DNA of 64,000 bases, from positions 21,625-85,624 of the forward strand of contig JALOQK010000002.1 of assembly GCA_025453395.1 (NCBI GenBank), in the 5' to 3' direction. A program made the translations under genes and the position numbers. Below the pieces are notes generated by a model. It saw only the letters and a list, made by a program, of their open reading frames with translations, was not told the origin of the DNA and made no database searches. Shown here piece by piece: positions 4,589-59,488 of this stretch. The first letter of the stretch is position 1. Each line of letters begins with the position of its first letter. Origin of the DNA: Candidatus Omnitrophota bacterium. Lineage in GTDB: Bacteria > Omnitrophota > Gorgyraeia > Gygaellales > Profunditerraquicolaceae.

Positions 4589-4598
4589 AGATATAATA

Positions 4599-4691: not shown

Positions 4692-4697
4692 GGAAGA

Positions 4698-27923: not shown

Positions 27924-28844
27924 ATGAAAAAAGATTTAATTTCCATAAAAGATTTATCATCTGCAGAGATAAATCAGCTTTTTGATTTGACTGCGCAATT
28001 AAAAAGGAACAAGAATAAATTCTCTCGGGTTTTAAGCGGAAAGACTTTGGCCCTGATTTTCCAAAAGCCCTCAAACCGCACGCGGGTTTCTTTTGAAGTG
28101 GGGATGTATCAGCTGGGAGGAAATTCCATATATTTATCCCCGGGAGAGATAAACCTTGGGGTCAGGGAATCTATCCCGGATGCGGCTAAAACTCTTTCCC
28201 GTTATGTGGATGGGATTGTTTTAAGGACTTTTGCGCATAAAAACGTGATTGAATTGGCTAAATATGCGGATATCCCTGTAATAAACGGTTTATCGGATTT
28301 TTCTCATCCCTGCCAGGCGCTGGCGGATATCTATACGGTTGTTGAGAAATTAGAAAATGTGAAGGGAAAAACCTTAGCTTATGTGGGCGACGGAAACAAT
28401 GTTTGTAATTCGCTTTTATTTATTTGCGCCAAGACCGGCATGAACATTAATGTTGCTGCGCCTGTTGGCTATAAGCCTGATAGAGCGGTGGTGGAGCAAG
28501 CAGAAAATATCGCCCTGCCCAATAAAAGCAAAGTTAGCATTTTTAGCGATCCCTTAAAGGCTGTTAAGGGCTCGGATGTTATTTATACCGATGTTTGGAC
28601 CAGCATGGGGCAGGAAAAAGAGGCCTTAAACAGGCTCAAGGCTTTTAAAGGCTTTCAGATTAATCAGCGGCTTTTGGCGCATGCCAAGAAGGGTGTCCTT
28701 GTTATGCATTGCCTGCCCGCGCACAGAGGCGAGGAAATTACCGGAGAAGTTATGGACAGCAAAAATTCAGTAGTTTTTGATCAGGCGGAAAACCGCATGC
28801 ACGTGCAGAAAGCAGTGTTGATTAAACTGTTAAAACAGCTGTAA
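27924..28844 (+). CDS. argF: ornithine carbamoyltransferase
   Basis: STRTR carbamoyl-phosphate motif and the HCLPAHRGEE motif. Confidence 0.85.
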   Translation: MKKDLISIKDLSSAEINQLFDLTAQLKRNKNKFSRVLSGKTLALIFQKPSNRTRVSFEVGMYQLGGNSIYLSPGEINLGVRESIPDAAKTLSRYVDGIVLRTFAHKNVIELAKYADIPVINGLSDFSHPCQALADIYTVVEKLENVKGKTLAYVGDGNNVCNSLLFICAKTGMNINVAAPVGYKPDRAVVEQAENIALPNKSKVSIFSDPLKAVKGSDVIYTDVWTSMGQEKEALNRLKAFKGFQINQRLLAHAKKGVLVMHCLPAHRGEEITGEVMDSKNSVVFDQAENRMHVQKAVLIKLLKQL

Positions 28845-28892
28845 GCTGTAAGCTATAAGCTGTAAGCTGAAGACTGATAGCTGACAGCTGGA
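28836..28892. repeat. GTAAGCT / GATAGCT heptamer repeat
   Basis: gtaagct gtaagct ataagct gtaagct gaagact gatagct gacagct. Overlaps the argF stop. Confidence 0.75.
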
Positions 28893-28900
28893 AAGGTCTT

Positions 28901-30082
28901 ATGAAGAAAGTTGTATTAGCTTATTCGGGCGGTTTAGACACTTCTTGTATCGTGCGTTGGCTAAAGGATAAGGGTTATGAAGTTATTTGTTTTACCGCGG
29001 ATTTGGGCCAGGGTTTAGGCAGCGGCGAGGATTTATCGGCAATTGAAAAAAGAGCATACGCTGCCGGGGCAAGCAAGTTCTTTATTAAAGACCTGCAGGA
29101 TGAATTTGTCCGGGATTTTGTTGCTCCAGCCTTAAAGGCCAATGCCATATATGAAGGCAAATACCTTTTGGCTACCGCATTAGGCAGGCCTTTAATTGCC
29201 AAGCATCTGGTAGAGTTGGCGCATAAAGAAAAGGCTCAGGCAATCGCCCATGGCTGTACCGGCAAAGGCAACGATCAGGTCAGGCTTGAAGTTGCCGCTT
29301 CTATACTGGATCCCAAGCTTGAGATTATCGCCCCGGTGCGTGATTGGGAATTTAAATCCCGCGAAGAAGAAATAGACTACGCGCTTAAAAATAGCATTCC
29401 GATAGATGTTACCAAAAAAAAGCCTTACAGCATTGACCGCAATATTTGGGGGATCAGCATTGAGTCCGGGATATTAGAAAATTTGCAGCAGGAGCCACCG
29501 GAGGATGCGTATCTTATCACTAAGACTCAAAGCGGCGGTTCCAGCTATCCTAAATACATAGAAATTTATTTTGAAGATGGAGTGCCTAAGAAAATAGAAG
29601 GCAAAAGTTATAAATTAAAAGATCTGATCAGCCAGCTTAATGAAACCGGCGGCGCCTATGGCGTGGGCAGGTCGGATGTGATTGAAAACCGCCTTGTGGG
29701 CATTAAGTCCCGGGAAATTTATGAAGCCCCTGCTGCGACAATGCTTCATATCGCGCATCGCGAGCTGGAGTCGCTTGTTCTGGATAGAGAGTTGGCGCAT
29801 TTTAAAGAAATAATCGCTTTAAAATATTCAGAGCTTGTCTATTACGGCTTATGGTATTCTCCTTTAAAAGAGGCGCTCGATGGCTTTATTGAATCTACCC
29901 AAAAATTGGTAACCGGTTCAATAAAGTTGAAGCTTTTTAAGGGCAGCTGTGTTGCGGTAGGCAGGTCTTCTAAAAATTCTTTGTATAGAAAAGAATTAGC
30001 TACATACGGGAAAGAAGATAAGTTTGATCAAAAGTTAGCAGAAGGTTTTATTAAGATTTGGGGAATGCCGTATAAGAGATGA
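28901..30082 (+). CDS. argG: argininosuccinate synthase
   Basis: VVLAYSGGLDTS PP-loop. Confidence 0.9.
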   Translation: MKKVVLAYSGGLDTSCIVRWLKDKGYEVICFTADLGQGLGSGEDLSAIEKRAYAAGASKFFIKDLQDEFVRDFVAPALKANAIYEGKYLLATALGRPLIAKHLVELAHKEKAQAIAHGCTGKGNDQVRLEVAASILDPKLEIIAPVRDWEFKSREEEIDYALKNSIPIDVTKKKPYSIDRNIWGISIESGILENLQQEPPEDAYLITKTQSGGSSYPKYIEIYFEDGVPKKIEGKSYKLKDLISQLNETGGAYGVGRSDVIENRLVGIKSREIYEAPAATMLHIAHRELESLVLDRELAHFKEIIALKYSELVYYGLWYSPLKEALDGFIESTQKLVTGSIKLKLFKGSCVAVGRSSKNSLYRKELATYGKEDKFDQKLAEGFIKIWGMPYKR

Positions 30083-30084
30083 AA

Positions 30085-30200
30085 AAAATGGGTGAGGTTG
30101 TATAAGGTTACATGAGGTTAAATGATGTTACATGAGGTTGCAAAAAGCTTTAAAGCAACTTCATGTAACCTTCGGTAACTTCATGCAACTTTAATTAACC
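30085..30200. repeat. family B palindromic element (copy 2)
   Basis: aggttacatg aggttaaatg atgttacatg aggttgcaaaaagc ttt aaagcaactt catgtaacct tcggtaactt catgcaactt. Confidence 0.75.
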
Positions 30201-30224
30201 TTATAATTACGGAGGTTTTTATAC

Positions 30225-31577
30225 ATGGCTAAGAAATTATGGGGGGGAAGGTTTAAGAAGCAGATAGACGCTGATTTCTATAATTTCCAGAAGTCTATTC
30301 AGTATGACTATAAGCTTGCTGAATATGATATCTACCACTCCATGATCCATATCAATGCCCTGGCGCATACGGGAGTGTTAAACCCTTCTGAAGCCAAGAG
30401 ACTGCGGGCGGGATTAAGCGCGGTTCTTTCGGAGGTTAAAAGCGGCAATTTTAAATATGACCCTGCCTGCGAAGATATCCATACTTATATTCAGAATAAA
30501 CTTGAAAGCAAGGTAGGGGAAGTCGCGCTTAAAATGCACAGTTTTCGTTCCAGAAATGATCAGGTGGTTTTTGATGAAAAATATTATTGCCTTTCGCAGG
30601 GATCAAGGATATTTAAACTCTTAACAGAGTTAAAAAAGTCGTTTTTATGGCTTGCTAACGCTTATAAGTATGATTATTTTGTTGGTTATACCCATACCCA
30701 GCGGGCGCAGATCGTGAAATTTTCTGATTATCTGCTCAGCTTCCTGGAAATGTTTAATCAGGACGCAGAGAGGCTTCAGATATATCTGGATAATCTGAAG
30801 GTTTATATCGGATCAGGCGCTTTAGCCGGAAGCTTCATCAAGAAAGATGATTATCAGAAGGCGATCAAGGAGTGCGCGGATAAGATCTCACAGGACCTGC
30901 CGCTTAGGATATCATCGGCGCACAACTCTTTGAATAACGTCAGCAACCGGGATTTTATCATTGAGCTATTAAGTATCTTTGCTATTTTGCAGATGCATCT
31001 GTCGCGTTTAGCCGAGGATTTTATCCTTTATTCCACAAGAGAATTTAATTACCTGAACCTGCCCGAAGAATTTTGCACTGGCTCAAGCTTGATGCCGCAC
31101 AAGAAGAATCCAGATTTCTTAGAATTGGTACGCGGGTATACCGGTAAAGTATATGGGGATCTGTTTTCCTTATTGACTACGATGAAGGGTTTGCCGCTTA
31201 CTTATAACCGGGATATGCAGCTTGATAAAGAGCCGCTTTTTTCTTCAACGCAAGTTGTCTTGGAAGAGCTTTTGATCATGTCTAAGTTCGTCAAAAAGGT
31301 CACCTTAAACAAAGAAGCTGTTACGCGCGCGCTAGAAGATGAGACTCTTTATGCCACTGAAATCGCGGAATATTTAGTTTCTAAGGGCGTCCCCTTTAGG
31401 ACTGCGCATGAAATAGTAGGCAAGATCATCCGTTATTGCGAGGATAACAATATAAAGATACAACATTTAAGCGATGACCCTTTAAAGAATTTCTCGCAGT
31501 ATTTGAGTTCACAAAAGATCAAGAAAATCTTTGATCCGGGTTATGCCACAAGTTTAAAAAGGTCAACAAAGGATTAA
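30225..31577 (+). CDS. argH: argininosuccinate lyase
   Basis: Fumarate-lyase family signature GSSLMPHKKNPD. Confidence 0.9.
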   Translation: MAKKLWGGRFKKQIDADFYNFQKSIQYDYKLAEYDIYHSMIHINALAHTGVLNPSEAKRLRAGLSAVLSEVKSGNFKYDPACEDIHTYIQNKLESKVGEVALKMHSFRSRNDQVVFDEKYYCLSQGSRIFKLLTELKKSFLWLANAYKYDYFVGYTHTQRAQIVKFSDYLLSFLEMFNQDAERLQIYLDNLKVYIGSGALAGSFIKKDDYQKAIKECADKISQDLPLRISSAHNSLNNVSNRDFIIELLSIFAILQMHLSRLAEDFILYSTREFNYLNLPEEFCTGSSLMPHKKNPDFLELVRGYTGKVYGDLFSLLTTMKGLPLTYNRDMQLDKEPLFSSTQVVLEELLIMSKFVKKVTLNKEAVTRALEDETLYATEIAEYLVSKGVPFRTAHEIVGKIIRYCEDNNIKIQHLSDDPLKNFSQYLSSQKIKKIFDPGYATSLKRSTKD

Positions 31578-31578
31578 G

Positions 31579-32856
31579 ATGCATTATTTCCAATATAAAA
31601 ATAACCGCCTTTTTTGCGAAGACGCTGATATCCAGGAGCTGGCTGTTAAACACGGCACTCCGCTGTATCTGTACAGCTATAAGACTTTAGTCGACCACTT
31701 TGTGAAATTAACAGATGCCTTCAGTGAAATTGACGCGCTTATTTGTTATTCGGTGAAAGCAAATTCAAACTTAAGCATTCTAAAGGCGCTTGTCAAGAAA
31801 GGCGCAGGGCTTGATATAGTTTCAGGAGGAGAATTGTTCCGCGCGCTTCGTGCCGGCTGTCCCCCTGAAAGGATCGTCTATGCATCGGTGGGCAAAACCG
31901 CTCAGGAGATAAAACAGGCTTTACAGAAAGGTATTTTATTCTTTAATGTGGAATCTATCCCGGAGCTTGAGAATATTAACCGCATAGCAGGTAATTTAAA
32001 TAAAACTGCCCGGGTAGCTCTGCGTATCAATCCCGACGTTGAAGCCAAGACCCATAAATACATTACTACCGGAAAACTTACCAATAAATTCGGTATTGAC
32101 CTTGAAAGCGCGCGCAGGATATTCGGCAGGTCAGCTGAATTTCCTAATCTGCGCATTTGCGGTATTCACATCCACATCGGCTCTCAAATCACTCAAAGCG
32201 CTCCGTTTGTGGCGGCGATAAGGAAAATAGCAGTGTTTATCGATTCCTTGAAGAAAGACGGCATTTGTCTGCAGTATTTGAACATTGGAGGGGGTTTAGG
32301 CATTGTTTATAATAAAGAAACTCCGCAGACAGCCGCTATATACGCTAGCAAGGTTATGGGTTTGCTTAAGAAGACAGGTTTGAAGATTATTCTGGAGCCG
32401 GGAAGGTTTATCGTCGGTAATAGCGGGATATTATTGGCAAAGGTTTTGTATGTCAAAAAAACATTTAAGAAGAATTTTATTATTGTGGATGCGGCAATGA
32501 ATGACTTGATAAGGCCGGCCCTTTATGAAGCGTATCACGAAATCCTGCCGTTGGTAAGATTTCAAGGTGGAAAGCCAAAAGCCAAAAGTCAAAAGTTTGA
32601 TGTGGTCGGCCCTATTTGCGAGAGCGGGGATTATTTTGCCAAAGGCCGCCTATTGCCACAAATTAAAGAGGGCGATTATTTGGCGATTATGAGCGCCGGC
32701 GCCTATGGTTTTAGCATGTCCAGCAATTATAATTCCCGCTGCCGCGCCCAAGAAGTAATGGTAGTCGGCAAAAAAGATTTTGTGATTAGAAATAGAGAGA
32801 TTCGCGAGGATCTAATACGTAACGAGAAAATCCCGCAGTTCTTAAGGCGAAAATGA
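31579..32856 (+). CDS. lysA: diaminopimelate decarboxylase
   Basis: Fold-III PLP decarboxylase (..YSVKAN.., ..HIHIGSQ.., ..GPICESGD..). Carries an in-frame heptamer insert at 32571..32598 (KPKAKSQK). Confidence 0.85.
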   Translation: MHYFQYKNNRLFCEDADIQELAVKHGTPLYLYSYKTLVDHFVKLTDAFSEIDALICYSVKANSNLSILKALVKKGAGLDIVSGGELFRALRAGCPPERIVYASVGKTAQEIKQALQKGILFFNVESIPELENINRIAGNLNKTARVALRINPDVEAKTHKYITTGKLTNKFGIDLESARRIFGRSAEFPNLRICGIHIHIGSQITQSAPFVAAIRKIAVFIDSLKKDGICLQYLNIGGGLGIVYNKETPQTAAIYASKVMGLLKKTGLKIILEPGRFIVGNSGILLAKVLYVKKTFKKNFIIVDAAMNDLIRPALYEAYHEILPLVRFQGGKPKAKSQKFDVVGPICESGDYFAKGRLLPQIKEGDYLAIMSAGAYGFSMSSNYNSRCRAQEVMVVGKKDFVIRNREIREDLIRNEKIPQFLRRK

Positions 32857-33689
32857 GAAAAATAAAATTTACAAAAATGGTCGCATCTGGTAATGATTTT
32901 GTCGTTGTTGATAAGCTTAAAGCTTATAGCTTAAAGCTTAAAGCTTTTTCTAAATCTATTTGTGACAGAAAATATGGAGCTGGGGCTGATGGGCTGCTAA
33001 TTTTGTCACAGCTTGTATTATCTCATGGCAAGCGTTCCGCTTCCTGCGGTATGCGTATTTTTAATGCCGATGGCTCTGAAGCCCAGATGTGCGGCAATGG
33101 GGCTAGGTGCGCGGCGTTGTATTTCAGCTGTCAGCTGTCAGCTGTCAGCTGTCAGCAAAAGATAAAAATAGAAACCAAAGCAGGGGATATACATTCTTTA
33201 GTAAACGGTAATAATGTAAAGATTAAATTAACTGATCCCAAAGGTTTAAGATTAAACATTCCAATTAAGCTTAATGGCAGAACGCTTAAGGTTAATTTTA
33301 TTAATACCGGGGTCCCGCATGCGGTTATTTTTGTGGAGGGCCTTGATAAAATTGACGTGGATAATTTAGGCAGAGCTATTCGTTATCATCAGGTTTTCAA
33401 GCCGCAAGGCGCGAATGTAAATTTTGTGGAAGTTTTGAATAATACTTCTATCAGGATAAGGACTTATGAAAGAGGCGTAGAGGGCGAAACTTTAGCCTGC
33501 GGTACCGGCTCTGTTGCTTCGGGTTTGCTTACCGCTTACAACTTACCGCTTACAGCTAATATTATAAATGTCCACACCCGGGGCGGCCAGATATTAAAAG
33601 TTGATTTTCAAAAATCAGGCGATGGTTTCAAGGATGTCTGGTTAGAGGGCAAAGCAAAAATTGTATACCAAGGAGAATACTATGTTTAG
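32853..33689 (+). CDS. dapF: diaminopimelate epimerase
   Basis: ..ASGNDFVVVD.. N-terminus, GNGARC catalytic Cys motif, second Cys in ..LACGTGS... Contains two internal heptamer repeat arrays. Confidence 0.85.
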   Translation: MRKIKFTKMVASGNDFVVVDKLKAYSLKLKAFSKSICDRKYGAGADGLLILSQLVLSHGKRSASCGMRIFNADGSEAQMCGNGARCAALYFSCQLSAVSCQQKIKIETKAGDIHSLVNGNNVKIKLTDPKGLRLNIPIKLNGRTLKVNFINTGVPHAVIFVEGLDKIDVDNLGRAIRYHQVFKPQGANVNFVEVLNNTSIRIRTYERGVEGETLACGTGSVASGLLTAYNLPLTANIINVHTRGGQILKVDFQKSGDGFKDVWLEGKAKIVYQGEYYV

Positions 33690-34557
33690 AGGATCAATTG
33701 TGGCTATGGTCACGCCATTTAAAGACGAAAAAATTGACGAGAAGAGATTCAGAAGTTTAATTGATTTTCAGATTGAAAACGGCACTTCCGGCATCGTCCC
33801 CTGCGGCACTACAGGTGAATCCGCGACATTGTCGGTTAAAGAGCACCAGCGTTTGATTGAATTGGCCATAGAGCAGGTGAATAAGCGCGTGCCGGTAATT
33901 GCCGGTACAGGTTCCAACTCTACGGATGAGGCGATCACTTTAACGAAGCACGCTTTTCATGCGGGCGCAGATGCTTCTTTGCAGGTAGCTCCGTATTATA
34001 ACCGCCCTACCCAGACCGGGTTATACCAGCATTTTAAGAAAATAGCCCAAGCAGTAGATATCCCGATCATTGTTTATAATATTGCTTCCCGCACAGGGGT
34101 TAATATCGAGCCGGAAACTATCGCGAAGCTGGCCTCTGAATGTAAGAATATTGTAGGAGTGAAAGAGGCATCCGGAAATCTTGAGCAGATGTCTCGTATC
34201 TTAAGTCTTACTCCAGCAGGATTTATTCTTCTTTCAGGAGATGATGCGCTCACACTTCCTGTTTTAAGCATCGCAGGAGCAGGGGTAATTTCTGTGGTGG
34301 CTAATATTGTTCCAAAAGATGTTTCCAGGCTGGTAAATGTCTTTGAAGATGGCGACATCCAAAAGGCGCAAGATATGCATTACAAACTTTTTCCGCTTGT
34401 CAAAGCTATGTTTATTGAAACAAATCCTATACCGGTTAAAACCGCGATGGGCCTGTTAAAGATGTGTTCACCGGAACTTCGTCTTCCGATGTCAGAAATG
34501 CTTCCTGACAATGTAGAGAAACTTAAGAAGGCGTTGAAAAATTACGGGTTATTATAA
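33682..34557 (+). CDS. dapA: 4-hydroxy-tetrahydrodipicolinate synthase
   Basis: MFRGSIVAMVTPF .. GTTGES; Schiff-base Lys in GVKEASGN. Start chosen at MFRG (aggaga ribosome-binding site 6 nt upstream). Confidence 0.85.
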   Translation: MFRGSIVAMVTPFKDEKIDEKRFRSLIDFQIENGTSGIVPCGTTGESATLSVKEHQRLIELAIEQVNKRVPVIAGTGSNSTDEAITLTKHAFHAGADASLQVAPYYNRPTQTGLYQHFKKIAQAVDIPIIVYNIASRTGVNIEPETIAKLASECKNIVGVKEASGNLEQMSRILSLTPAGFILLSGDDALTLPVLSIAGAGVISVVANIVPKDVSRLVNVFEDGDIQKAQDMHYKLFPLVKAMFIETNPIPVKTAMGLLKMCSPELRLPMSEMLPDNVEKLKKALKNYGLL

Positions 34558-34660
34558 AGGAAGTTAAATAAGGTTACATGAAGTTACCGTAGGTTAAATT
34601 AGGTTGCTTAAAAGCTTTTTGCAACTTCATTTAACATCATTTAACCTCAATTAACCTTAA
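34558..34660. repeat. family B palindromic element (copy 3)
   Basis: aagttaaata aggttacatg aagttaccgt aggttaaatt aggttgcttaaaagctttttgcaa cttcatttaa catcatttaa cctcaattaa. Confidence 0.75.
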
Positions 34661-34674
34661 ATGGAGGAGTTTTT

Positions 34675-35385
34675 ATGATAAAGCTTGGTATATCAGGCGC
34701 CTGCGGAAAAATGGGCAGGCGTATCTATGAGTTAGCTGCGCACGATAAAGATATAGAGGTGACGCTTTTATTGGAGAAAAAAGGCACTCCTCTGATCGGA
34801 AGGGAAGTAGGGAAACTGAAGGTTTCTTCTAATTCGGACGGGATATTCTTGATTGATGTCTTGGTTGATTTTACTTTGCCTGAATCTATAGAGGCAACCC
34901 TTGATTATGTGGCGCGTTATAAAAAGGCGCTTGTTTTAGGCACTACCGGATTAAGCCAAGAGCAGATTAAGAAAGTGGAAGAAGTTTCTGCTGTAGTGCC
35001 GGTTGTTTTTACTCCTAATATGTCTATCGGAGTAAATGTTTTGTTTTCTATTCTCCCAGAAATTGCCAAACGCTTGGGCAAAGATTATGATATTGAAGTT
35101 GTGGAGGCGCATCATAAGTTTAAGAAAGACGCCCCCTCGGGGACGGCCAAGAAAATAGTCTCGATCTTAGAAGAGTCAACCGGGAAGAAAATCCCCGCGC
35201 ATGCTGTACGTTTGGGAGACATCGTTGGAGACCATACCATTATTTTCTGCGGAAATTCCGAACGCATTGAAATCAAACATCAGGCGCATACACGGGATTT
35301 ATTTGCCGTAGGTGCGGTAAAAGCCGCCAAGTGGGTTGCCGGAAAGCCTGCCGGGCTATATACAATGCAGGACGTATTAAAGTAA
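34675..35385 (+). CDS. dapB: 4-hydroxy-tetrahydrodipicolinate reductase
   Basis: LGISGACGKMGRR N-terminus and ..EVVEAHHKFKKDAPSGTA.. motif. Confidence 0.85.
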   Translation: MIKLGISGACGKMGRRIYELAAHDKDIEVTLLLEKKGTPLIGREVGKLKVSSNSDGIFLIDVLVDFTLPESIEATLDYVARYKKALVLGTTGLSQEQIKKVEEVSAVVPVVFTPNMSIGVNVLFSILPEIAKRLGKDYDIEVVEAHHKFKKDAPSGTAKKIVSILEESTGKKIPAHAVRLGDIVGDHTIIFCGNSERIEIKHQAHTRDLFAVGAVKAAKWVAGKPAGLYTMQDVLK

Positions 35386-35404
35386 GGGGCAAAAAAGGAG
35401 ATAA

Positions 35405-36565
35405 ATGTTTAAGCTTTCTAAGAAAATTACCAGTTTGCCGCCGTATTTGTTCGTGGAAATTGATAAGGCCAAAAGAAAGGCGCGCGCTGAAGGAAGAGAT
35501 ATTATTGATTTAGGAATTGGCGACCCGGACCAGCCGACCCCCGCGCATGTAATTGAGAGGTTATATCAGGCGGCAAAAGACCCGGCCAATCACCGTTATG
35601 CCTTGGACCAGGGGATGCCTTCTTTGCGTCAAGCCATGTCCAAATGGTATCATAAAAGGTTTAATGTTGTTTTAGACCCGGATACCGAAATACTCCCCCT
35701 CATCGGCTCTAAAGAAGGGATCGCGCACTTCCCGCTGGCATTTTTAAATCCCGGCGACTATTCTTTGATTCCTGATCCTTGCTATCCTCCGTATAAGGGG
35801 GGTACTATTTTAGCTGGGGGCAAGCCGTATTTAATGCCGCTGTTGGAGACGAATAACTTTTTGCCGGATTTAAATAAAATAAGCCGCGCAGTGCTTAAGA
35901 AATCCCGCATAATCTACGTTAATTATCCTAATAACCCCACAGCTAGTATTGCCGGAAAAGAATTTTATCTTAAACTTATAAAGTTCGCCCACAAACATAA
36001 ACTTATCATTGTTTCTGATCTGGCTTATTCAGAAATGGTCTATGATAATTACCGTCCACCAAGCATTCTGGAATTTGACGGCTCAAGGGATGTGGCTATT
36101 GAATTTCATTCTTTATCTAAGACTTACAATATGACTGGATGGCGGGTGGCTTGGGCATGCGGTAATAAGGAATTGATCGCTGGCCTTGCTAAAGTTAAGT
36201 CAAATATTGATTCTGGGATATTCTCTGCTGTGCAAGTAGCAGCCTTATCCGCACTTGAGGGCTCTGATGAGCATGTACTTAAGATGTGTCAGATGTATCA
36301 AAACCGCCGCGATGCTTTAGTTATGGGGTTAAATACATTAGGTTGGAATGTTAAGCCGCAGAAAGCCACTTTTTATTCTTGGATAAAAATCCCCGGTAAA
36401 AAAAGTTCTATAGATTTTGCCGCCAAGATCTTAAAGGAAGCAGATATTATTGTTACCCCGGGAGTTGGTTTTGGGCAGGCTGGCGAAGGCTACATCCGTA
36501 TTGCTTTAACTGTTCCTGTAGATAGAATAAAAGAAGCAGTTAATCGTTTAGCTAAAGTGATTTAA
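35405..36565 (+). CDS. dapL: LL-diaminopimelate aminotransferase candidate (class I aminotransferase)
   Basis: LPPYLFVEIDKAK .. IDLGIGDPDQPTP N-terminal pattern typical of DapL; PLP-Lys in SLSKTYNMTGWR. Sits in the dap gene context. Confidence 0.65.
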   Translation: MFKLSKKITSLPPYLFVEIDKAKRKARAEGRDIIDLGIGDPDQPTPAHVIERLYQAAKDPANHRYALDQGMPSLRQAMSKWYHKRFNVVLDPDTEILPLIGSKEGIAHFPLAFLNPGDYSLIPDPCYPPYKGGTILAGGKPYLMPLLETNNFLPDLNKISRAVLKKSRIIYVNYPNNPTASIAGKEFYLKLIKFAHKHKLIIVSDLAYSEMVYDNYRPPSILEFDGSRDVAIEFHSLSKTYNMTGWRVAWACGNKELIAGLAKVKSNIDSGIFSAVQVAALSALEGSDEHVLKMCQMYQNRRDALVMGLNTLGWNVKPQKATFYSWIKIPGKKSSIDFAAKILKEADIIVTPGVGFGQAGEGYIRIALTVPVDRIKEAVNRLAKVI

Positions 36566-36578
36566 ATTCTTTAAAATT

Positions 36579-36980
36579 ATGGTTACTTGTTATTTGGGCT
36601 TAGGCGCGAACCTTGGCAACAGACACAGCGCAATTAGAAATGCGGTCACCGAGATTTCCCGCATTCCAAAAACGCGCGTCTTGAAGTTGTCACATCTTAT
36701 CAAGACTAAAGCATTGGGCGGGCCAAAAGACCAGCCGGATTTCTTAAACGCTGCTTTAAAGATCAAGACCGCACTTACACCCTTAGAGTTGTTGGATAAT
36801 CTAAAAACAATAGAAAAGAAATTAGGCAGAAAAAAGACTGTGCGCTGGGGGCCGCGCGCAATTGATCTGGATATTCTTTTTTATTCAAATCGGGTAGTCA
36901 ATAATAAAAGGCTTAAAGTCCCGCATCCCAGGGTGTTTGAGCGGTTGTTTGTTTTAAAACCGCTTATTGAGGTTATTTAA
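36579..36980 (+). CDS. folK: 2-amino-4-hydroxy-6-hydroxymethyldihydropteridine pyrophosphokinase
   Basis: YLGLGANLGN .. RWGPRAIDLDIL. Confidence 0.8.
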   Translation: MVTCYLGLGANLGNRHSAIRNAVTEISRIPKTRVLKLSHLIKTKALGGPKDQPDFLNAALKIKTALTPLELLDNLKTIEKKLGRKKTVRWGPRAIDLDILFYSNRVVNNKRLKVPHPRVFERLFVLKPLIEVI

Positions 36981-36983
36981 GTT

Positions 36984-37826
36984 ATGCTTATTGCAAAAAA
37001 TATCCGGCAGGCCAGGAAGTTTCTGAATAAGTACAGGCTTCTTAGGAAATCTGTGGGTTTTGTACCGACCATGGGAGCTTTACATCAGGGGCATTCCAGC
37101 CTTATTAGGCTTGCCCGCAAAGAAAACGATATAGTGGCAGTAAGTATCTTTGTTAATCCTGCGCAATTTGCGCCTCATGAAGACTTAAAGAAATACCCGC
37201 GCGATCTTAACTCTGACGCGCGAGTCTGCGCCAAAGAAAAGGTGGATCTTATTTTTTATCCCCGCCCTGAAGAAATGTATCCTAAAGGTTATAAAACATT
37301 TGTTAAGGTGGAGGGGTTATCAGAAGTCCTTTGCGGGAAATTCCGCCCCGGGCATTTCCGCGGCGTCTCAACGGTAGTCTTGAAACTTTTTAACATTATC
37401 CTTCCGGATAAAGCCTATTTTGGGCAGAAAGACGCTCAACAGGCGGCAATAATTAAAAAGATGGCGGAAGACCTAAATGTCCCGACACAGATAAAAATTG
37501 TCCCGACAGTAAGAAGCGAAGATGGCTTGGCGTTAAGTTCCCGCAACAATTATTTATCTGGCAGGGAAAAAGAAAAAGCCCTTATTTTATGCTCAAGCCT
37601 TTCTTTGGCCAGAGAAATGGTTAAATCTGGCGTGCGCGATGCGAAAACGATCATAGGCCAAATGCGCAAATTGATTGTCCGGGTAAAAGAAGCGAAAATA
37701 GATTATGTGGCCATTGTTGATCCGGCGACTTTGCAGGATGTCCTGTTTGTTAAAAAAGGCGATTTGGTCTGTTTGGCGGTTTGGATCGGGAAGACGCGTT
37801 TGATTGATAACCTATTGGTGGATTAA
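36984..37826 (+). CDS. panC: pantoate--beta-alanine ligase
   Basis: VPTMGALHQGHSSLI HIGH-type motif; ..GQKDAQQ... Confidence 0.85.
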   Translation: MLIAKNIRQARKFLNKYRLLRKSVGFVPTMGALHQGHSSLIRLARKENDIVAVSIFVNPAQFAPHEDLKKYPRDLNSDARVCAKEKVDLIFYPRPEEMYPKGYKTFVKVEGLSEVLCGKFRPGHFRGVSTVVLKLFNIILPDKAYFGQKDAQQAAIIKKMAEDLNVPTQIKIVPTVRSEDGLALSSRNNYLSGREKEKALILCSSLSLAREMVKSGVRDAKTIIGQMRKLIVRVKEAKIDYVAIVDPATLQDVLFVKKGDLVCLAVWIGKTRLIDNLLVD

Positions 37827-38650
37827 TGCGAAAGAAAATAAGGATCGGGATTGTCGGATGCGGAGCGATCGGCTCTTCTTTGGCAAAAGCTATAACTAAA
37901 GAATTTTCTGCAGATGCTTACGTGTCGGCATTGTTTGACACTCAGCCCGATAAGGCGCAGCTTTTATCTGTGGCGCTTCGCAAAGATATTTCTTTGGCAG
38001 TTTCTTCCCTTAAAGACCTGATCAGCTTCTCTGATTTTATAATAGAATCTTCAAGCGCTCAGGCCTCAGGCGGAATCTGCCGTCAGGCTGTCAATAACGG
38101 CAAGGATATATTGGTGATGAGTGTGGGAGGGCTTCTGAAGAGTTATCCGCGGATATTTAATTTAGCTAAAAAGAAAAAGGTGAAAGTCTATATCCCAAGC
38201 GGAGCTATCGGCGGGGTTGATGCCTTAAAGGCCCTGAATCTGTCAGATGTCAAAAAGGTCACGCTTACTACCACTAAAAACCCTATCGCTTTTAAGAAAG
38301 TGGAATATTTGATTAAGAAGCGCATTGTGCTTTCCGAAATTAAGAGTAAAAAAGTTTTATTTTACGGAAACGCTTTAAGGGCAGTGCGTTGTTTTCCGCA
38401 GAATATCAATGTGGCGGCTGTTTTATCATTAGTTGGAATAGGCGCGAAGCAAACAAAAGTAAAGATCGTTGCTTCTCCAAAGGTTAACAAGAACATACAT
38501 GAAGTGCAAATAATTTCCCGGGCCGGTAATTTTTATAGCCGTTCGGAGAATGTATTGCATCCGGGCAACCCAAAGACCAGCTACTTGGCTTTTTTATCGG
38601 CAAAGGCGCTGTTGCGCGATATTTTTCTGCCGGTTAAAATAGGCACATAA
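37826..38650 (+). CDS. nadX: L-aspartate dehydrogenase candidate
   Basis: IGIVGCGAIGSSLAKAI Rossmann N-terminus, ~270 aa, C-terminal ..HPGNPKTSYLAFLSA... A family-level guess only. Confidence 0.5.
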   Translation: MRKKIRIGIVGCGAIGSSLAKAITKEFSADAYVSALFDTQPDKAQLLSVALRKDISLAVSSLKDLISFSDFIIESSSAQASGGICRQAVNNGKDILVMSVGGLLKSYPRIFNLAKKKKVKVYIPSGAIGGVDALKALNLSDVKKVTLTTTKNPIAFKKVEYLIKKRIVLSEIKSKKVLFYGNALRAVRCFPQNINVAAVLSLVGIGAKQTKVKIVASPKVNKNIHEVQIISRAGNFYSRSENVLHPGNPKTSYLAFLSAKALLRDIFLPVKIGT

Positions 38651-38820
38651 TAGATGTTAAATGAAGTTACATGAAGTTAAATAAGGTTAAATGAAGTTGC
38701 TCGAAGAATGTTACATGAAGTTGCATGAGGTTACATAAAGTTACATGACGTTGCAAAATAATTTCTTTTATGCAACCTCACGTAACATCATTTAACCTCA
38801 TGCAACCTCAATTAACTTCA
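38651..38820. repeat. family B palindromic element (copy 4, longest)
   Basis: At least eight direct units (gttaaatgaa gttacatgaa gttaaataag gttaaatgaa gttgctcgaa .. gttacatgaa gttgcatgag gttacataaa gttacatgac gttgcaaaataatttcttttatgcaa), then inverted units cctcacgtaa catcatttaa cctcatgcaa cctcaattaa. Confidence 0.8.
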
Positions 38821-38845
38821 AAAAGAGAGGGGGTGAATACAGAAT

Positions 38846-39088
38846 ATGGCGAAGAAATTAGCGAAGGTCGGTATCAAGAGGGAAAAAGGTTTCCTCTATT
38901 ACGTCGACAAGCAAGGTGACATTTCCTGCGCGAAGATGGCCAGAGGCAACAAAAAAGGCGGAAGCCCCAAGAAAGTTGCTAAATGCGGCATCAAGAGACA
39001 GGAAGGTTACTTGTATTTCGTTGACAAAAATGGAGACATCTCCTGCGCGGTAATGAAAAGAGGCGGGAAAAAGAAGAAAAAGAAGTAA
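38846..39088 (+). CDS. small highly basic protein made of two tandem ~33-aa modules with a poly-Lys tail
   Basis: Module 1 AKVGIKREKGFLYYVDKQGDISCAKMARGNKKG. Module 2 AKCGIKRQEGYLYFVDKNGDISCAVMKRGGKKKKKK. Ribosome-binding site gagagggggtg upstream. Confidence 0.5.
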   Translation: MAKKLAKVGIKREKGFLYYVDKQGDISCAKMARGNKKGGSPKKVAKCGIKRQEGYLYFVDKNGDISCAVMKRGGKKKKKK

Positions 39089-39099
39089 AACAAAAACAA

Positions 39100-39165
39100 G
39101 GGGACGGTTCTATTTTTAAATAACTATTAAAGGTAGAAAAATAGAACCGTCCCCAAGTTTTCTTT
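39100..39165 (+). terminator. long hairpin terminator after the small basic gene
   Basis: 18-bp perfect stem ggggacggttctattttt / aaaaatagaaccgtcccc followed by a T-rich tract. Confidence 0.65.
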
Positions 39166-39170
39166 CTAAT

Positions 39171-41996
39171 ATGACTTCCAATATCATCATTCGCGGCGCC
39201 AAGGAACATAACTTAAAAAACATTTCTTTAGAGCTTCCGCGCAATAAATTGATTGTGGTTACCGGTTTATCCGGCTCAGGTAAATCAAGCCTTGTGTTTG
39301 ATACTATCTATGCCGAAGGCCAGCGCCGCTATGTGGAAAGCCTTTCCAGCTACGCCCGGCAGTTTTTAGGTCAGCTTCAGAAACCGGATGTGGAGTATAT
39401 TGAAGGCCTTTCTCCGGCAATTGCTATTGAACAAAGGACTGCTGGCGGTAACCCCCGTTCCACGGTAGCTACCCAAACCGAAATCTACGATTATTTGCGC
39501 CTTCTTTTTGCGCGTATCGGAGAGGTATCCTGTTATCAATGCGGCAGGTTTGTGAAGCGCCAGAGCGCCCAAGAGATCGTCCAGCAGGTTATGGAATTAG
39601 GCGAAGGCGCAAGCATTCAGATTTTAGCAAAAGTAATAAGCGGTAGAAAAGGGCAATATCGGCAGGAGTTTTCAAATCTTAAGAAGGCAGGTTTTATCCG
39701 CGCGCGCGTCGATGGTAAAATATATGAGTTGGATCAAAAAATAAATTTAGATAAATATAAAGCGCATAACATAGAAGTTCTGGTAGACAGGCTGACCATT
39801 GCGCCGGCTGTAAAGCCGCGGCTTACTGATTCCATAGAAACCGCGTTAAAGGCAGGCCAAGGCATTGTGGTTGTTGCCGCCAAGCTTTCTAGCGGTAAAG
39901 AAGCCGAATCAGTATATAGCCAGCACTATGCCTGCACAAACTGCGGCATAAGTTATACGGAAGTCCAGCCGCGCATTTTTTCTTTTAATTCTCCTTATGG
40001 GGCCTGCCCGGAATGTAACGGCTTGGGTACAAAATTTGAGTTTGACCTGGATTTGATCATCCCGGAGAAAGATAAATCTATCAATCAGGGCGCGCTTGCC
40101 GTCTGGAGGAGAGGCGGACGAGGCTATATTATGTATTACCGCTGGCTTTTGCGCGAGTTATCGCGCGAACTGGGGTTTAGTCTGGACACGCCTTTTAATA
40201 AGCTTAAGAAAGACACCCAGAAAGCGATCCTTTATGGTACGGATATCGAAATCGGCAGTAAGCCTTTTGAGGGGGTTATCCCGCACTTAGAAAGGCTTTT
40301 TAGGGACACCGACAGCGATTATTTAAAGCATGAAATATCCAAATTTATGTCTACGCTTGCCTGTCCGGGCTGTAATGGCGCGCGCCTTAAGAAAGAAAGC
40401 CTCAGCGTTAAGATAAAGGGCAAGAATATTTGGGAAGTAGCTCAGATGCCGATAAATAAGGCAAAGGAATTTTTCTCTTCCCTTAATTTAAGCGCCAAAG
40501 ATAAACTTATTGCCGCAGAATGCTTGAAACAGATAAATCAGCGTTTGCAGTTTTGTATTGATGTGGGGCTTGATTATTTAACTTTAGAGAGAAAAAGTTC
40601 CACTCTTTCCGGAGGAGAGGCGCAGCGAATCCGGCTTGCCACTCAAGTGGGTTCGCGCTTGGTAGGAGTTTTGTATGTTTTAGACGAGCCCAGTATCGGC
40701 CTGCACCAGCGGGATAATATTAAGCTTCTTTCAACATTGGAATCTTTGAGGGATTTAGGCAATACGGTATTAGTGGTGGAGCATGATGAATATACCATAA
40801 GAGCCGCTGACTATGTTGTGGATTTAGGCCCGGGCGCGGGGCTTCATGGAGGGCATGTAGTTTTTGCCGGTACCAATAAACAATTGCTGGAGAATAAACA
40901 GTGCTTAACCGCTAAATATTTACGCCGCGAATTGGATATTCCCATTCCAGAAAGCCGCCGCACTTTTGATCCTAATAGGGCCATTGAAATTAAAGGCGCC
41001 CGGCAGCATAACTTAAAGAATATTGATGTCAAATTTCCCATAGGCGCTTTTATTGCTGTGACAGGCGTTTCCGGTTCGGGGAAATCAACGCTTATAGAGG
41101 ATATACTGTATCGGGGGTTGAATCAGAAGATCTACAGTTCCCGCGAGAAACCCGGAGCGCACGATGAACTATTAGGGGCAGACCTTATAGACAAGGTTAT
41201 TGTCGTGGATCAGTCGCCTATTGGAAGAACGCCCCGTTCCAACCCCGCTACTTACACAGCAGTGTTTAGCCATATCCGTGATTTATTCAGCCGGCTTCCG
41301 GAAGCTAAGATGCGCGGATATAAGCCGGGAAGGTTTTCTTTTAATGTTAAAAGCGGGCGCTGTCAGGCATGCATGGGAGATGGAATCAAGAAAATAGAGA
41401 TGCATTTCTTGCCGGATGTCTATGTGAAATGCGATATCTGCAAGGGCAGGCGTTTTAATGATGCTACTTTAGAGGTTAAATATAAAGGAAAATCCATTGC
41501 TGATGTCTTGGAGATGACCGTCGAAGAAGCGGTTGTATTGTTTGAGAATATCCCGGTAATTAAAAATACCCTGTCATATCTGTATGATGTGGGTTTGGAA
41601 TATGTTCAATTGGGCCAGTCCTCCACTACTCTTTCCGGAGGCGAGGCGCAAAGAATTAAGCTTGCCAGTGAATTAAGCAAGCGTTCAACCGGGAAGACCT
41701 TATATATACTTGATGAGCCGACCACGGGCTTACATTTCGCGGATGTGCATAAGCTTATTACTGTGCTGCAGCGGCTGGTGGATAAAGGCAATACGGTTAT
41801 TGTTATTGAACATAATTTGGAAGTAGTAAAATGCGCGGATTATATTATTGATTTAGGGCCTGAAGGCGGCGATAAGGGGGGAGAGCTTGTTTTTTGCGGA
41901 ACCCCGGAAGATTTAGCAGGGTCAAAGAAATCCTATACGGGAGAGTTTTTAAGAAAGATATTGAAGGCGGGAAAAGGAAGTGATATAGTGAAATAA
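39171..41996 (+). CDS. uvrA: excinuclease ABC subunit A
   Basis: Two ABC ATPase modules ([20 protein letters not shown]), zinc fingers, LSGGEAQR signatures. 941 aa. Confidence 0.95.
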
Positions 41997-46595: not shown

Positions 46596-46802
46596 ATGAT
46601 CACTGAAATCGGAATTATTGCCGGAGATATCTGGCATTTCCTTGACCAGCACGGAGAGGTTTCTTTGGAAAATCTTGTCAAGGGCATAGATAAATCTCGT
46701 GATAATGTGCTGATGAGTTTAGGTTGGCTTGCCCGTGAGGGTCATGTCCTTGTGCAATCGCAAGGAAGCGGCTATACCGTGTGCTTAAGGAAAAATGATT
46801 AG
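46596..46802 (+). CDS. small winged-helix-like protein (DUF2582-like)
   Basis: 68 aa. IAGDIWHFLDQHGEVSLENLVKGI .. SLGWLAREGHV pattern recalled from small wHTH proteins. Ribosome-binding site aaggagg upstream. Confidence 0.4.
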   Translation: MITEIGIIAGDIWHFLDQHGEVSLENLVKGIDKSRDNVLMSLGWLAREGHVLVQSQGSGYTVCLRKND

Positions 46803-47193
46803 GGTCCATCTCCAAAGATCAAGCGTGCTGCTTGTTACCTTATTTATTGTGCTTATCGCGGTGATCTTGGCGCAGGTTATGTTATCTATTCTAAGAAGCC
46901 ACTCCCGCCTTTCCCATCATCAAGTAAGCAGGATCCAGGCCCAGTATGCTGCCATGGCAGGGGTGGTTTATGCTTATGATAGCTTAAGAAGTGGGCATTT
47001 GTCATCTAGCGATTGCCCAGAAGGTAATTCAAATCCAAAGTGCCGGGTAGATGATAATAATTTCCCCGTTTGCATAAAGGATAAAAGAGTAAAAATTATT
47101 CTTTGCCCCGCAGGCGCCACCTGTGCGGGTAAAACCTGCCCTGTCTCAAATAATCTCTGCATCTATTCTACCGCAGAGTATACCTATAATTAA
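46795..47193 (+). CDS. membrane-anchored Cys-rich protein of unknown function
   Basis: N-terminal TM VLLVTLFIVLIAVILAQV. C-terminal domain with 8 Cys (CPEGNSNPKC .. CIKD .. CPAGATCAGKTCP .. C). Confidence 0.35.
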   Translation: MIRVHLQRSSVLLVTLFIVLIAVILAQVMLSILRSHSRLSHHQVSRIQAQYAAMAGVVYAYDSLRSGHLSSSDCPEGNSNPKCRVDDNNFPVCIKDKRVKIILCPAGATCAGKTCPVSNNLCIYSTAEYTYN

Positions 47194-47290
47194 GTCTAAG
47201 TAAGTCTAAGTAAATCTATCGTATTTCTGTTAGTCATCTTTTCCGGCGGAGTATACTGCTATAAGTAAGTCCAAGTAAGTCTGCATAAAA
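47194..47290. repeat. TAAGTC-based short tandem repeats
   Basis: taagtctaagtaagtctaagtaaatcta .. taagtaagtccaagtaagtctg. Unit length differs from the 7-nt family. Confidence 0.6.
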
Positions 47291-47375: not shown

Positions 47376-47564
47376 ATGCCAAGACTTATAGACATTGATG
47401 AGTTAGCAGAATATCTGAAATTAAAGAAGCAGACGATTTATAATTGGCTGCACGAAAGAAAGATTTCAGGTATTAAGGTTGGCGGGGTCTGGAGATTTGA
47501 CCGCCGCGAGGTAGACGCCTGGCTTAGGAGCAGACGGCGTTTATCTACAACAGGAGATAAATAA
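47376..47564 (+). CDS. helix-turn-helix DNA-binding protein (excisionase/MerR-like HTH_17 family)
   Basis: LIDIDELAEYLKLKKQTIYNWLHERKISGIKVGGVWRFDRREVDAWL. Its stop overlaps the pilM start. Confidence 0.6.
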   Translation: MPRLIDIDELAEYLKLKKQTIYNWLHERKISGIKVGGVWRFDRREVDAWLRSRRRLSTTGDK

Positions 47565-56679: not shown

Positions 56680-56680
56680 A

Positions 56681-56900
56681 AAAGCGCAAAACTAAAAGCG
56701 CAAAGCGTAAATCGATAATCCAAAATTCAAAATTTTTAATTTTACGCTATAGTTTTACCTGCCTGCCGGCAAGGCAGGCGTTTTTCGCTTTACATTTTAC
56801 GCTATATAAGACAAAAATCGTCTAACTTTTATGTATTTGGCTGATAGCTGAAAGCTGATAGCTGATAGCTGAAAGCTGATATAATTTGACTGAACTTATG
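56681..56900. repeat. family A heptad-periodic palindromic element plus GCTGATA repeats (copy 1)
   Basis: aaaagcg caaaact aaaagcg caaagcg taaatcg ataatcc aaaattc aaaattt ttaattt tacgcta tag .., inner hairpin ctgcctgccggcaaggcaggcg, then gctgata gctgaaa gctgata gctgata gctgaaa gctgata. Confidence 0.8.
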
Positions 56901-58650: not shown

Positions 58651-59385
58651 ATGAGAAGATTTTTCTGCCCTTCGGAGAATATCAGGAATAATAAAATATG
58701 CATTAGTGACAAAGATACGCTTCATCATATAAAAGATGTCTTGCGCATGAAGCCAAAAGACGAAGCAGTTATTTTTAGTGAAAAATCCGATGAATTTAAA
58801 GCCTGTCTGGAATCTGTGGATGAAGAAAAGGCCCAGTTTTTTATTAAGCAAGCTTTGATGCCCTCAAAAGAGCAGTTACTTAAGATTACGGTTTGTTGCG
58901 CTATTCCCAAAAAAGCCAAGATGGATGAAATTGTGGATAAGCTTACTCAGCTTGGTGTAGAGAAGATTATTCCGTTAGCCAGCGACCATGTGATCGGGCG
59001 CATGGACAAACAAAGGCAAAAGGAAAAAGTCGCGCGCTGGCAAAGGATCGCTAAAAGCGCCAGCCTCCAAAGCCAGAGGAATATCATACCGGTTGTAGAA
59101 GAGATTAAAACCGTGGATGAGGCGCTTAAAGAAAACAATGCTTTTGACCTTAAGGTCATTGCTAATTTAGCCAATCGCCCCAAATTCCTAAAAGATGTTT
59201 TTTCCCCGGATAAGCACAAGAGGATTCTTGTTTTTATCGGTCCAGAAGGTGATTTTTCCGCGCGGGAAATAAATTTGGCCTTAGAAAATTCCTGTGTTGC
59301 GGTTTCCCTGGGAGAAACTACCCTTAGGGTGGATACCGCGGCGATTGCGGTGGTAAGTTATATAAAGCTTAGTAACGCGTGTTAG
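58651..59385 (+). CDS. rsmE: 16S rRNA (uracil1498-N3)-methyltransferase RsmE
   Basis: RFF.. N-terminus, PUA-like domain, C-terminal SPOUT knot motif VFIGPEGDFSAREI .. SLGETTLRVDTAAIA. Confidence 0.75.
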   Translation: MRRFFCPSENIRNNKICISDKDTLHHIKDVLRMKPKDEAVIFSEKSDEFKACLESVDEEKAQFFIKQALMPSKEQLLKITVCCAIPKKAKMDEIVDKLTQLGVEKIIPLASDHVIGRMDKQRQKEKVARWQRIAKSASLQSQRNIIPVVEEIKTVDEALKENNAFDLKVIANLANRPKFLKDVFSPDKHKRILVFIGPEGDFSAREINLALENSCVAVSLGETTLRVDTAAIAVVSYIKLSNAC

Positions 59386-59390
59386 CTAAA

Positions 59391-59480: not shown

Positions 59481-59488
59481 GCTTATTT

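Follow-up and report, generated by a model that had tools for sequence, protein, structure and literature searches.

Decamer-repeat palindromes between operon genes of a Candidatus Omnitrophota bacterium: probable gene-less derivatives of PF05635 cassettes

The subject of this report is a family of palindromic elements found in a stretch of 64,000 nucleotides from a Candidatus Omnitrophota bacterium (the window; JGI 3300037461 Ga0392394_0000003; NCBI proteins MCU0665731-MCU0665751, locus tag prefix MUF05_). The window contains four such elements (copies 1-4, in order; coordinates are in window numbering), made of inverted arms of tandem 10-nt units and located between the genes of apparent operons. 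Sequence comparison indicates that the four are very probably derivatives of a gene-carrying cassette, missed by the preliminary description of this DNA, in which a PF05635 gene is enclosed by arms of the same kind in a manner resembling the intervening sequences (IVSs) of 23S rRNA. Taken as a whole, the reading that we consider probable is that the elements are gene-less, IVS-like units that are co-transcribed within operons, would form imperfect stems of ~45 bp and would be likely substrates of RNase III.

Cassettes and their gene-less derivatives

The gene-carrying form is present at locus L126, where a five-unit left arm and a right arm lie ~410 bp apart and enclose a gene for a PF05635 '23S rRNA-intervening sequence protein' (E 3.4e-19), homologues of which gave 564 database matches. 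The full cassette consists of a five-unit arm ending in GTTGC, the PF05635 gene, and GCAAC followed by four inverted units, and is placed between co-directional operon genes. Its sole open reading frame (ORF) encodes a four-helix-bundle protein of 120-155 amino acids, and in some cassettes the innermost unit appears to double as the ribosome-binding site of this gene. A homologue with 73% identity to the L126 protein (P0129) is encoded at L146, which lies on the window's own JGI contig at a distance of ~80 kb. On the left side of the L146 cassette the leuB stop codon is followed by AAGTTACATGA GGTTACGTGA GGTTAAGTGA TGTTACATCA GGTTGC and then by the PF05635 gene, and on the right side GCAACCTCAT TTAACATTAT GTAACTTTAT GCAACCTCAT TTAACC leads to the mdh start codon. 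The leuB/mdh junction of L148-L155 holds the same cassette, and the PF05635 protein encoded there shows 72-78% identity as against 71-78% for LeuB; this equal divergence indicates vertical inheritance under purifying selection at leuB/mdh. Further decamer-arm cassettes were found at purE/larC (L156), at murB/ftsA in a metagenome-assembled genome labelled Edwardsbacteria (L158) and in one labelled WOR-1 (L161), and decamer arms were present in all six cassettes of this kind that were examined (L126, L146, L148, L156, L158 and L161). When the RNA of the whole L148 cassette is folded, the arms form the closing stem round the gene and its start codon, which is the architecture of an rRNA intervening sequence. 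At L146 (3441-3604) the right arm and a 36-nt spacer are present in two 82-bp tandem copies, leaving this cassette with one left and two right arms.

The PF05635 proteins of such cassettes fall into two subfamilies, with ~25% identity between them and 54-79% within each. Arm type tracks the subfamily in 10/10 cassettes, one subfamily having decamer arms (6/6) and the other arms of 7-nt units (4/4; described below). The length of the arm, ~50 nt, is common to both families.

The relation of the cassettes to the gene-less elements is seen at three places. At L126 a gene-less copy lies 1.5 kb from the cassette, and the two have left arms that are identical over ~49 nt. In the genome of the window, the stretch that adjoins the cassette's left arm on its inner side recurs at the loop starts of copies 3 and 2, with GGTTGC-TAAAAGC in the cassette compared with GGTTGC-TTAAAAGC in copy 3 and GGTTGC-AAAAAGC in copy 2. 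At L158 a gene-less element lies beside the cassette, and its loop (GGAGAAGATGTAG) has kept the cassette's ribosome-binding site and ATG (GAGAAGATG). Together these observations point to internal deletion of a cassette; the most likely origin of a gene-less element would be deletion of the gene, leaving two arms joined by a short A/T-rich loop. Gene-less derivatives outnumber cassettes locally, and their dispersal to other intercistronic junctions is supported.

The general layout of an element is of five TGAnGTTAnn units running into GTTGC, an A/T-rich loop of 4-17 nt, and GCAAC with four inverted units, giving a total size of 98-168 bp. That four copies exist at the positions first described was confirmed by direct reading, by unit counts and by a phased-motif scan of the 64-kb window, which found arrays at exactly four places; shuffled windows gave 0-3 short runs. 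The motif RRGTTAMATR occurs at 20 sites in the window (3.2 +/- 1.7 in shuffled sequence), 15 of them inside the four elements. Tandem Repeats Finder returned a period of 10 on both arms of every copy. The 10-bp unit of the preliminary description is thus real, with the correction that only TGA and GTTA are conserved positions and the other three vary. The arms had been credited with 4 to 9 repeats; the count is five units per arm, save that the right arm of copy 3 has four and that copy 4 combines an extra arm with a 5+5 element. Likewise the centre, given as TTGCAAAAAGCTTT..GCAA, holds as an inverted pair but is properly GTTGC and GCAAC on either side of a variable A/T-rich loop of 4-17 nt, AAAAGCTTT being common only to copies 2 and 3.

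Copy 1 (7859-7956) fills the rsmD/coaD gap and has a five-unit left arm (7859-7905, the innermost unit being GTTGC), the loop CTTT (7906-7909) and a right arm of GCAAC and four units (7910-7956). The rsmD stop codon, TAA at 7877-7879, lies within the third unit (GGTTACATAA), so that the final six codons of rsmD (KLNEVT) are element sequence. Copy 2 (30093-30205), in the argG/argH gap, has its left arm at 30093-30141, the loop AAAAAGCTTTAAA at 30142-30154 and its right arm at 30155-30205; the argG stop codon is upstream at 30080-30082, and the argH Shine-Dalgarno sequence GGAGG and ATG (30225) are downstream. Copy 3 (34558-34659), in the dapA/dapB gap, directly follows the dapA stop codon (34555-34557) with a left arm at 34558-34607, the loop TTAAAAGCTTTTT at 34608-34620 and a right arm of only four units at 34621-34659, the dapB ATG being at 34675. 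Copy 4 (38653-38820), between nadX and an ORF of 80 amino acids, is composite. It begins 3 nt past the nadX stop codon (38648-38650) with a solitary five-unit left arm whose innermost unit is GTTGC (copy 4a, 38653-38700), continues with a 9-nt spacer (TCGAAGAAT, 38701-38709) and ends with a complete 5+5 element (copy 4b, 38710-38820; left arm 38710-38754, loop AAAATAATTTCTTTTAT at 38755-38771, right arm 38772-38820). Copy 4b lies upstream of a conserved ribosome-binding region, AAAAAGAGAGGGGGTGAA, of the 80-amino-acid ORF (ATG 38846).

A scan of metagenome contigs with a specific pattern gave 20 loci in unrelated metagenomes, of which 16 are true members; the remaining four (L123, L125, L131 and L135) are an unrelated simple hairpin and were dropped. 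A loose pattern (GTTAMATNNNGTTAMATNNNGTT) run over genome contigs gave at least one true relative, L114 in a named Omnitrophota metagenome-assembled genome (MAG), almost all of the other matches listed being due to chance. These finds uphold the claim of a dispersed family. Among the resulting 21 gene-less elements (the four window copies, the 16 metagenome members and L114), 15 have 5+5 units with the GTTGC/GCAAC centre and the other six deviate in unit count in one or both arms. Arms are occasionally expanded to 7, 9 or 10 units or show a 20-nt periodicity within the arm, and position-specific unit variants are common to L137 and L142, which are different loci. Viral contigs gave 0 matches to the element pattern and no confirmed relatives of the cassette protein, and so provide no evidence for a phage vector. 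At L114 (1810-1880; MAG STD1_168) the decamer element adjoins a GC-rich heptamer array with the units GTGGGCC GTGGGCC GAGTGAC GTGGCCC GGGACAC GAGGCAC TAGCCAC AAGTCAC.

Operon junctions with and without the element

The gene pairs that flank the window elements (rsmD/coaD, argG/argH, dapA/dapB and nadX/80-amino-acid ORF, the last followed by uvrA) are all on the + strand, and each element occupies the gap from a stop codon to the ribosome-binding site of the next gene. The preliminary description had placed the elements at operon boundaries; they sit instead at gene junctions within operons, which agrees with its further statement that some are located inside apparent long transcription units. 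Among the 19 elements that could be classified by their flanks, 17 have co-directional flanking genes. The upstream stop codon is 1-18 nt away or inside the first arm, and the downstream start is mostly 0-28 nt away; at a few loci the gap to the nearest ORF of at least 100 amino acids is larger or takes the form of an overlap.

Homologues of ArgG at 81-84% identity are nearly all labelled Omnitrophota, and three of the corresponding loci (L143, L144 and L145) are syntenic with the window over argC-J-B-D-F-G-H, lysA, dapF-A-B, an aminotransferase gene, folK, panC, nadX and the 80-amino-acid ORF, L143 stopping after dapB. The decamer element is absent at argG/argH and dapA/dapB in all three and at nadX/80-amino-acid ORF in L144 and L145, the element-free spacers of the three loci measuring 17-92 nt. 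The three window copies that can be tested in this way are therefore insertions or losses. At the nadX junction the ribosome-binding region AAAAAGARGGGGGTGAA before the 80-amino-acid ORF is conserved in filled and empty sites, which suggests that the element was inserted between the stop codon and that region. Target-site duplications were not visible at 19 junction pairs, the nearest relatives having ~83% ArgG identity and unalignable spacers. Other hairpin types hold the same junctions elsewhere, namely heptamer arrays in L143 and a GGGACGGTTC...GAACCGTCCC hairpin in L145. The L143 arrays or palindromes (11183-11239 at argG/argH and 15590-15663 at dapA/dapB) are of the form AAGGTAC AAGGCAC ... 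CTTGTAG CTTGTAG.

The lysine-rich ORF of 80 amino acids (38846-39088) is conserved after nadX in L144 (20047-20289) and L145 (19702-19941). A link between copy 4 and this gene, as first proposed, is not borne out, since the gene keeps its place after nadX in these two relatives that have no element. A Pfam search assigned it to no family, the only match being to DotY and sub-threshold.

Stems, binding sites or debris

Being placed between stop and start codons, the elements would be transcribed within the operon mRNA, where the two arms may zip into a ~45-bp imperfect stem composed of helices of 7-8 bp with 2x2 internal loops every 10 nt. By analogy with the IVSs of 23S rRNA, such a stem could be processed by RNase III or could at least present a strong structural block at the junction, and either event would uncouple what happens to the upstream cistron from what happens to the downstream one. 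Processing by RNase III is itself put forward tentatively, on the strength of that analogy. The very long hairpins foreseen in the preliminary description are supported, in that all four copies fold as long imperfect hairpins (-27 to -51 kcal/mol, z -4.0 to -10.4; copies 1-3 folded on both strands, copy 4 on the + strand only), copy 2 being the most stable (-51 kcal/mol, z -10.4). In the window Rfam gave no family at gathering thresholds and no rRNA, and its matches at E<=1 were sub-threshold eukaryotic microRNA-precursor hairpins, the noise to be expected of any long hairpin.

Whether the arms are maintained as pairing partners was approached by a column comparison of 19 elements anchored at GTTGC/GCAAC and by shuffling the partners among 18 elements. 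At most conserved unit positions TGA and GTTA are the same in 17-19 of the 19 elements, and this includes the outer units, which lay outside the search pattern. At the three remaining positions of each unit, which vary freely, pairing is no more frequent than chance (4-10 of 19 elements). A shift of one arm by 10 or 20 nt leaves pairing at 0.79, the value of the true register, and a shift of 1-5 nt lowers it to 0.30-0.45. The register and shuffling results show that the complementarity is generic and register-independent and comes wholly from one motif in two orientations. These data neither prove nor exclude an RNA stem; what they do show is that sequence, and not merely pairing, is maintained.

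Several of these results, and some others, weigh against the reading of the elements as cassette-derived RNA stems. There is no covariation between the arms, the pairing of variable columns being 0.44 inside an element and 0.46 across unrelated ones (p 0.72 by permutation). There is also no wobble bias on the sense strand (52 G.U as against 49 A.C mismatches), and this speaks against selection for RNA pairing on that strand over and above the pairing that the conserved motif supplies. That TGA and GTTA are so strictly kept in every unit would be expected of a recognised sequence more than of a structural need. Solitary arms without a partner occur in the window (38653-38700) and at L136, L139 and L140. 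A 2x2 internal loop every 10 bp may make the stems poor substrates for RNase III, and transcription, folding in vivo and cleavage are all inferred. No transposase or other mobility signature was found. Finally, the derivation could be the reverse of that proposed, with PF05635 genes inserting into the loops of pre-existing hairpins.

A somewhat unlikely alternative is that the elements are neutral debris, the decaying remnants of a selfish cassette, which a compact and operon-dense genome tolerates only between a stop codon and the next start and which have no part in processing or regulation. Presence and absence do vary among syntenic relatives whose flanking genes are unchanged, and the occurrence of quite different hairpins at the same junctions makes those junctions look permissive. 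The absence of covariation fits this explanation. Moreover, every unit contains TGA or TAA and so supplies stops in all frames on both strands; an insertion close to the end of a gene would then do no harm, the rsmD stop codon being an example. Neutral decay should however erode all positions evenly, yet TGA and GTTA are kept beside randomised neighbours and the number of units stays at five. It also seems to us unlikely that a ~45-bp hairpin that follows a stop codon by 1-18 nt and precedes a start by 0-28 nt would be without effect on the mRNA, and the gene of the cassette itself is under purifying selection, as judged from the leuB/mdh comparison.

The main rival explanation, which we regard as unlikely, is that the arms are arrays of protein-binding sites in DNA or single-stranded RNA, with a multimeric protein seated on five 10-nt-phased units in each orientation and serving the mobility or regulation of the cassette. 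The candidate binder would be the cassette's own PF05635 protein, and the gene-less copies would be orphan sites comparable to the transposon ends in miniature transposable elements with inverted repeats (MITEs). Such sites would account for constant TGA and GTTA beside three free and non-covarying positions, for the period of exactly 10 and the strong mode of five units per arm, for the persistence of solitary arms without a partner, and for an arm type that tracks the PF05635 subfamily despite the low identity between subfamilies. Avd, a relative of that protein, is a pentameric, positively charged barrel (PMC6182149), and the likewise related PDB entry 2GSC holds five identical chains. In opposition to this, the heptamer family with its ~seven units per arm is a poor fit to five-fold symmetry, the PF05635 family has no known nucleic-acid sequence specificity, the correlation of arm and subfamily is explained without binding by co-inheritance of gene and arms, and the elements are confined to intercistronic gaps and not found at promoters. 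The iteron-like phased sites of the preliminary description may hold in part: the strict 10-nt period and conservation without covariation fit protein sites, but there is no context of a plasmid origin or rep gene and they are not strict iterons.

That the elements are host hairpins grown in place by microsatellite-like expansion and fold-back, acting as mRNA stabilisers in the manner of repetitive extragenic palindromes (REPs) and only later receiving PF05635 genes, is very unlikely. The arms expanded to 7, 9 and 10 units and the 20-nt periodicity do indicate that slippage acts, and the intercistronic position is REP-like. Against this, unrelated metagenomes yield the same fixed 5+5 layout and the same invariant inner unit GTTGC/GCAAC, position-specific unit variants are shared between loci (L137 and L142; the L126 cassette and its gene-less neighbour), the loops keep cassette-proximal sequence including the ribosome-binding site and ATG, and the complementarity of an element's own arms does not exceed that of arms taken from different elements, contrary to what recent fold-back would give.

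Mimicry of Shine-Dalgarno and anti-Shine-Dalgarno sequences (left arm GAGGT, right arm ACCTC) was considered and rejected, the G that completes GAGG being variable and present in only ~60-70% of units. The unit may also resemble direct-repeat boxes of the OmpR/ArcA type, a likeness to which no weight is given here. Lastly, the proposal that the elements are intrinsic terminators or attenuators inside operons, for which long stable hairpins right after stop codons might speak, can be set aside as extremely improbable, as no T-run lies 3' of the stem in any copy, the stems are AT-rich and interrupted, a terminator scan of 28000-40000 flagged none of the three copies there and gave a total at the level of shuffles, promoter and terminator scans showed no enrichment and placed no site on the elements other than a weak promoter-like match at 34651, and the elements split genes of single pathways (argG/argH, dapA/dapB) that stay adjacent without an element in relatives.

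A sister family with heptamer arms, and other repeats

A second, distant PF05635 gene, located in the window itself (61590-61955, + strand; 121 amino acids, E 9.9e-21), belongs to the other subfamily, a search with which gave 5454 database matches. Its cassette region (61527-61995) has arms of inverted 7-nt units, AGCGAAA AGTGTAA AGCGAAA AATGTAA upstream and TTTTGAA TTTTTAA ... TTTTAGC TTTAAGC downstream. Heptamer arms were found in all four members of this subfamily (the window gene at 61590, L146 IVP1, L163 and L165), and each arm has ~seven units.

Gene-less palindromes of heptamers are also present in the window, at 56680-56760, 59384-59484, 60685-60850, 63170-63250 and 4597-4695. A centre ATAATYCAAAATTCAAAA|TTTTTAATTTTACGCTATAG is common to those at 56680-56760, 59384-59484 and 63170-63250. 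Between the right arm of 60685-60850 and the 3' flank of the 61590 cassette there is a close match; the flank (TTTTGAATTTTTAATTATAGTTTTTAGC) is almost the same as the inner right arm of the palindrome at 60789-60847, which has no gene. The relation of cassette to gene-less palindrome thus looks like that proposed for the decamer family, and these palindromes are presumably the 'first' family of the preliminary description.

From the two families together a more far-reaching scheme may be drawn, which we think rather improbable in its entirety. In this scheme repeat-armed PF05635 genes would form a class of mobile cassette in its own right, one that settles in intercistronic junctions and, by extension, in rRNA helices. 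Each subfamily would recognise its own units (a pentameric barrel on five decamers), spread would proceed via RNA excised by RNase III, possibly through a reverse transcriptase supplied in trans, as is the case in the diversity-generating retroelements that depend on Avd, and the gene-less palindromes would be non-autonomous passengers.

Other short-period repeats were observed. Near-perfect 7-nt tandem arrays (AAGCTTA, TCAGCTG, GCTTACA, AGCTTTC) lie inside ORFs, at 32913-32946, 33124-33156 and 33527-33557 in dapF (32853-33689), where they are in frame, and at 6185-6259 in the ORF 5183-7321. Those in dapF coincide with the segments DKLKAYSLKLKAF, FSCQLSAVSCQQ and LLTAYNLPLTAN of DapF, which do not align to the L144 orthologue. 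A third hairpin family, AAGGGGACGGTTC...GAACCGTCCCC, with 32-nt arms that are 84% complementary, is found at 39086-39168 in the gap between the 80-amino-acid ORF and uvrA, and a related hairpin lies at dapA/dapB of L145 (15500-15590). At 47187-47281, between the ORFs 46795-47193 and 47376-47564, two short direct arrays of the 10-nt unit TAAGTAAGTC are placed round ~45 nt of unique sequence.

Relation to known systems

Knowledge of IVSs and of their ORFs for S23p or four-helix-bundle proteins goes back to the early 1990s, though how they arose, how they move and what the protein does have not been explained (PMC4990558), and 'four helix bundle protein' is an annotation borne by thousands of genes with no known role. 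The literature searched contained no description of the present elements or of repeat-armed PF05635 cassettes outside rRNA. The results show that operons of the ordinary kind harbour IVS-like cassettes in Omnitrophota and in neighbouring candidate phyla, that each PF05635 subfamily travels with its own repeat-built arms, and that the cassettes appear to yield gene-less palindromes that fill intergenic gaps. The spread of such cassettes and their effect on operon RNAs thereby become open to study, and two families of short-period palindromes in compact genomes that might otherwise be mistaken for regulatory sites or iterons would be accounted for.

Unlike intrinsic terminators, the elements have no GC-rich stem with a U-tract, and unlike iterons they lie in chromosomal biosynthetic operons, with no replication origin or rep gene, and have their arrays in inverted pairs. 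Each arm is in itself a simple tandem array of the kind known as long simple sequence repeats (LSSR) or short tandemly repeated repetitive (STRR) sequences, with some expansions, but such repeats have no five-unit mode, no terminal unit GTTGC and no inverted partner arm. The TAACTGA heptamers of Beggiatoaceae, Cyanobacteria and Bacteroidetes, for which a sequence-specific RNA-binding protein has been suggested and of which one 'indirect' case is described (PMC4679880), are similar, as are the cyanobacterial STRR heptamers, in having stop-bearing short tandem units in spacers just before starts, a patchy distribution and no known mechanism of spreading. Their units however all run in one orientation, as direct arrays whose copy number varies, and they have neither a 5+5 palindrome nor a described PF05635 gene.

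In phage T7, intercistronic RNase III sites are hairpins with internal loops that are cut to leave a stabilising 3' hairpin. The present elements would likewise be hairpins with internal loops between the cistrons of polycistronic mRNA, cleavage here being proposed by analogy; the T7 sites are single unique hairpins of ~20-30 bp and not a dispersed family of tandem units. REPs are known to stabilise upstream mRNA and, when within ~15 nt of the stop codon, to reduce expression of the upstream gene. Like REPs and bacterial interspersed mosaic elements (BIMEs), the decamer elements are short, dispersed, imperfect palindromes in intercistronic or 3' regions of operons, presumably within mRNA. They differ in having no GTAG/CGTC head at either end, in arms of ~50 nt made of tandem units as compared with a REP total of 20-40 bp, and in that the gene between the arms is PF05635 in 6/6 cassettes examined and not that of a REP-associated tyrosine transposase (RAYT; an IS200/IS605-type Y1 transposase). 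The resemblance to MITEs lies in a non-coding sequence of ~100 bp that keeps the ends of a gene-carrying parent after internal deletion, is dispersed and insertion-polymorphic, and has arms matching those of a gene-carrying cassette in the same genome or contig. In contrast to MITEs, the parent has no recognisable transposase, and the inverted repeats make up nearly the whole element and are internally tandem-repetitive; a target-site duplication was not seen at the 19 junction pairs compared.

In their mode of working the elements come nearest to the IVSs and to MITEs or REPs. The 23S rRNA IVS of Coxiella contains an S23p ORF, has complementary borders and is cut by RNase III in mid-stem, and it is regarded as selfish and possibly mobile (PMC4990558). 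The host transcript of the present elements would be an operon mRNA, all copies lying between protein-coding genes, and not helix 9, 25 or 45 of 23S rRNA. The arms are of five tandem 10-nt (or ~seven 7-nt) units in place of the unique, nearly perfect 28-bp stem of an IVS, and the four window copies, with loops of 4-17 nt, do not contain the PF05635 ORF that is present in L126, L146, L148, L156, L158 and L161. Like the IVSs of Leptospira and Coxiella, however, the cassettes have their PF05635 gene enclosed by complementary flanks that close a long stem and show a sporadic, insertion-like distribution, and the window copies, when folded, are bordered by complementary, stem-forming sequences as the IVSs are.

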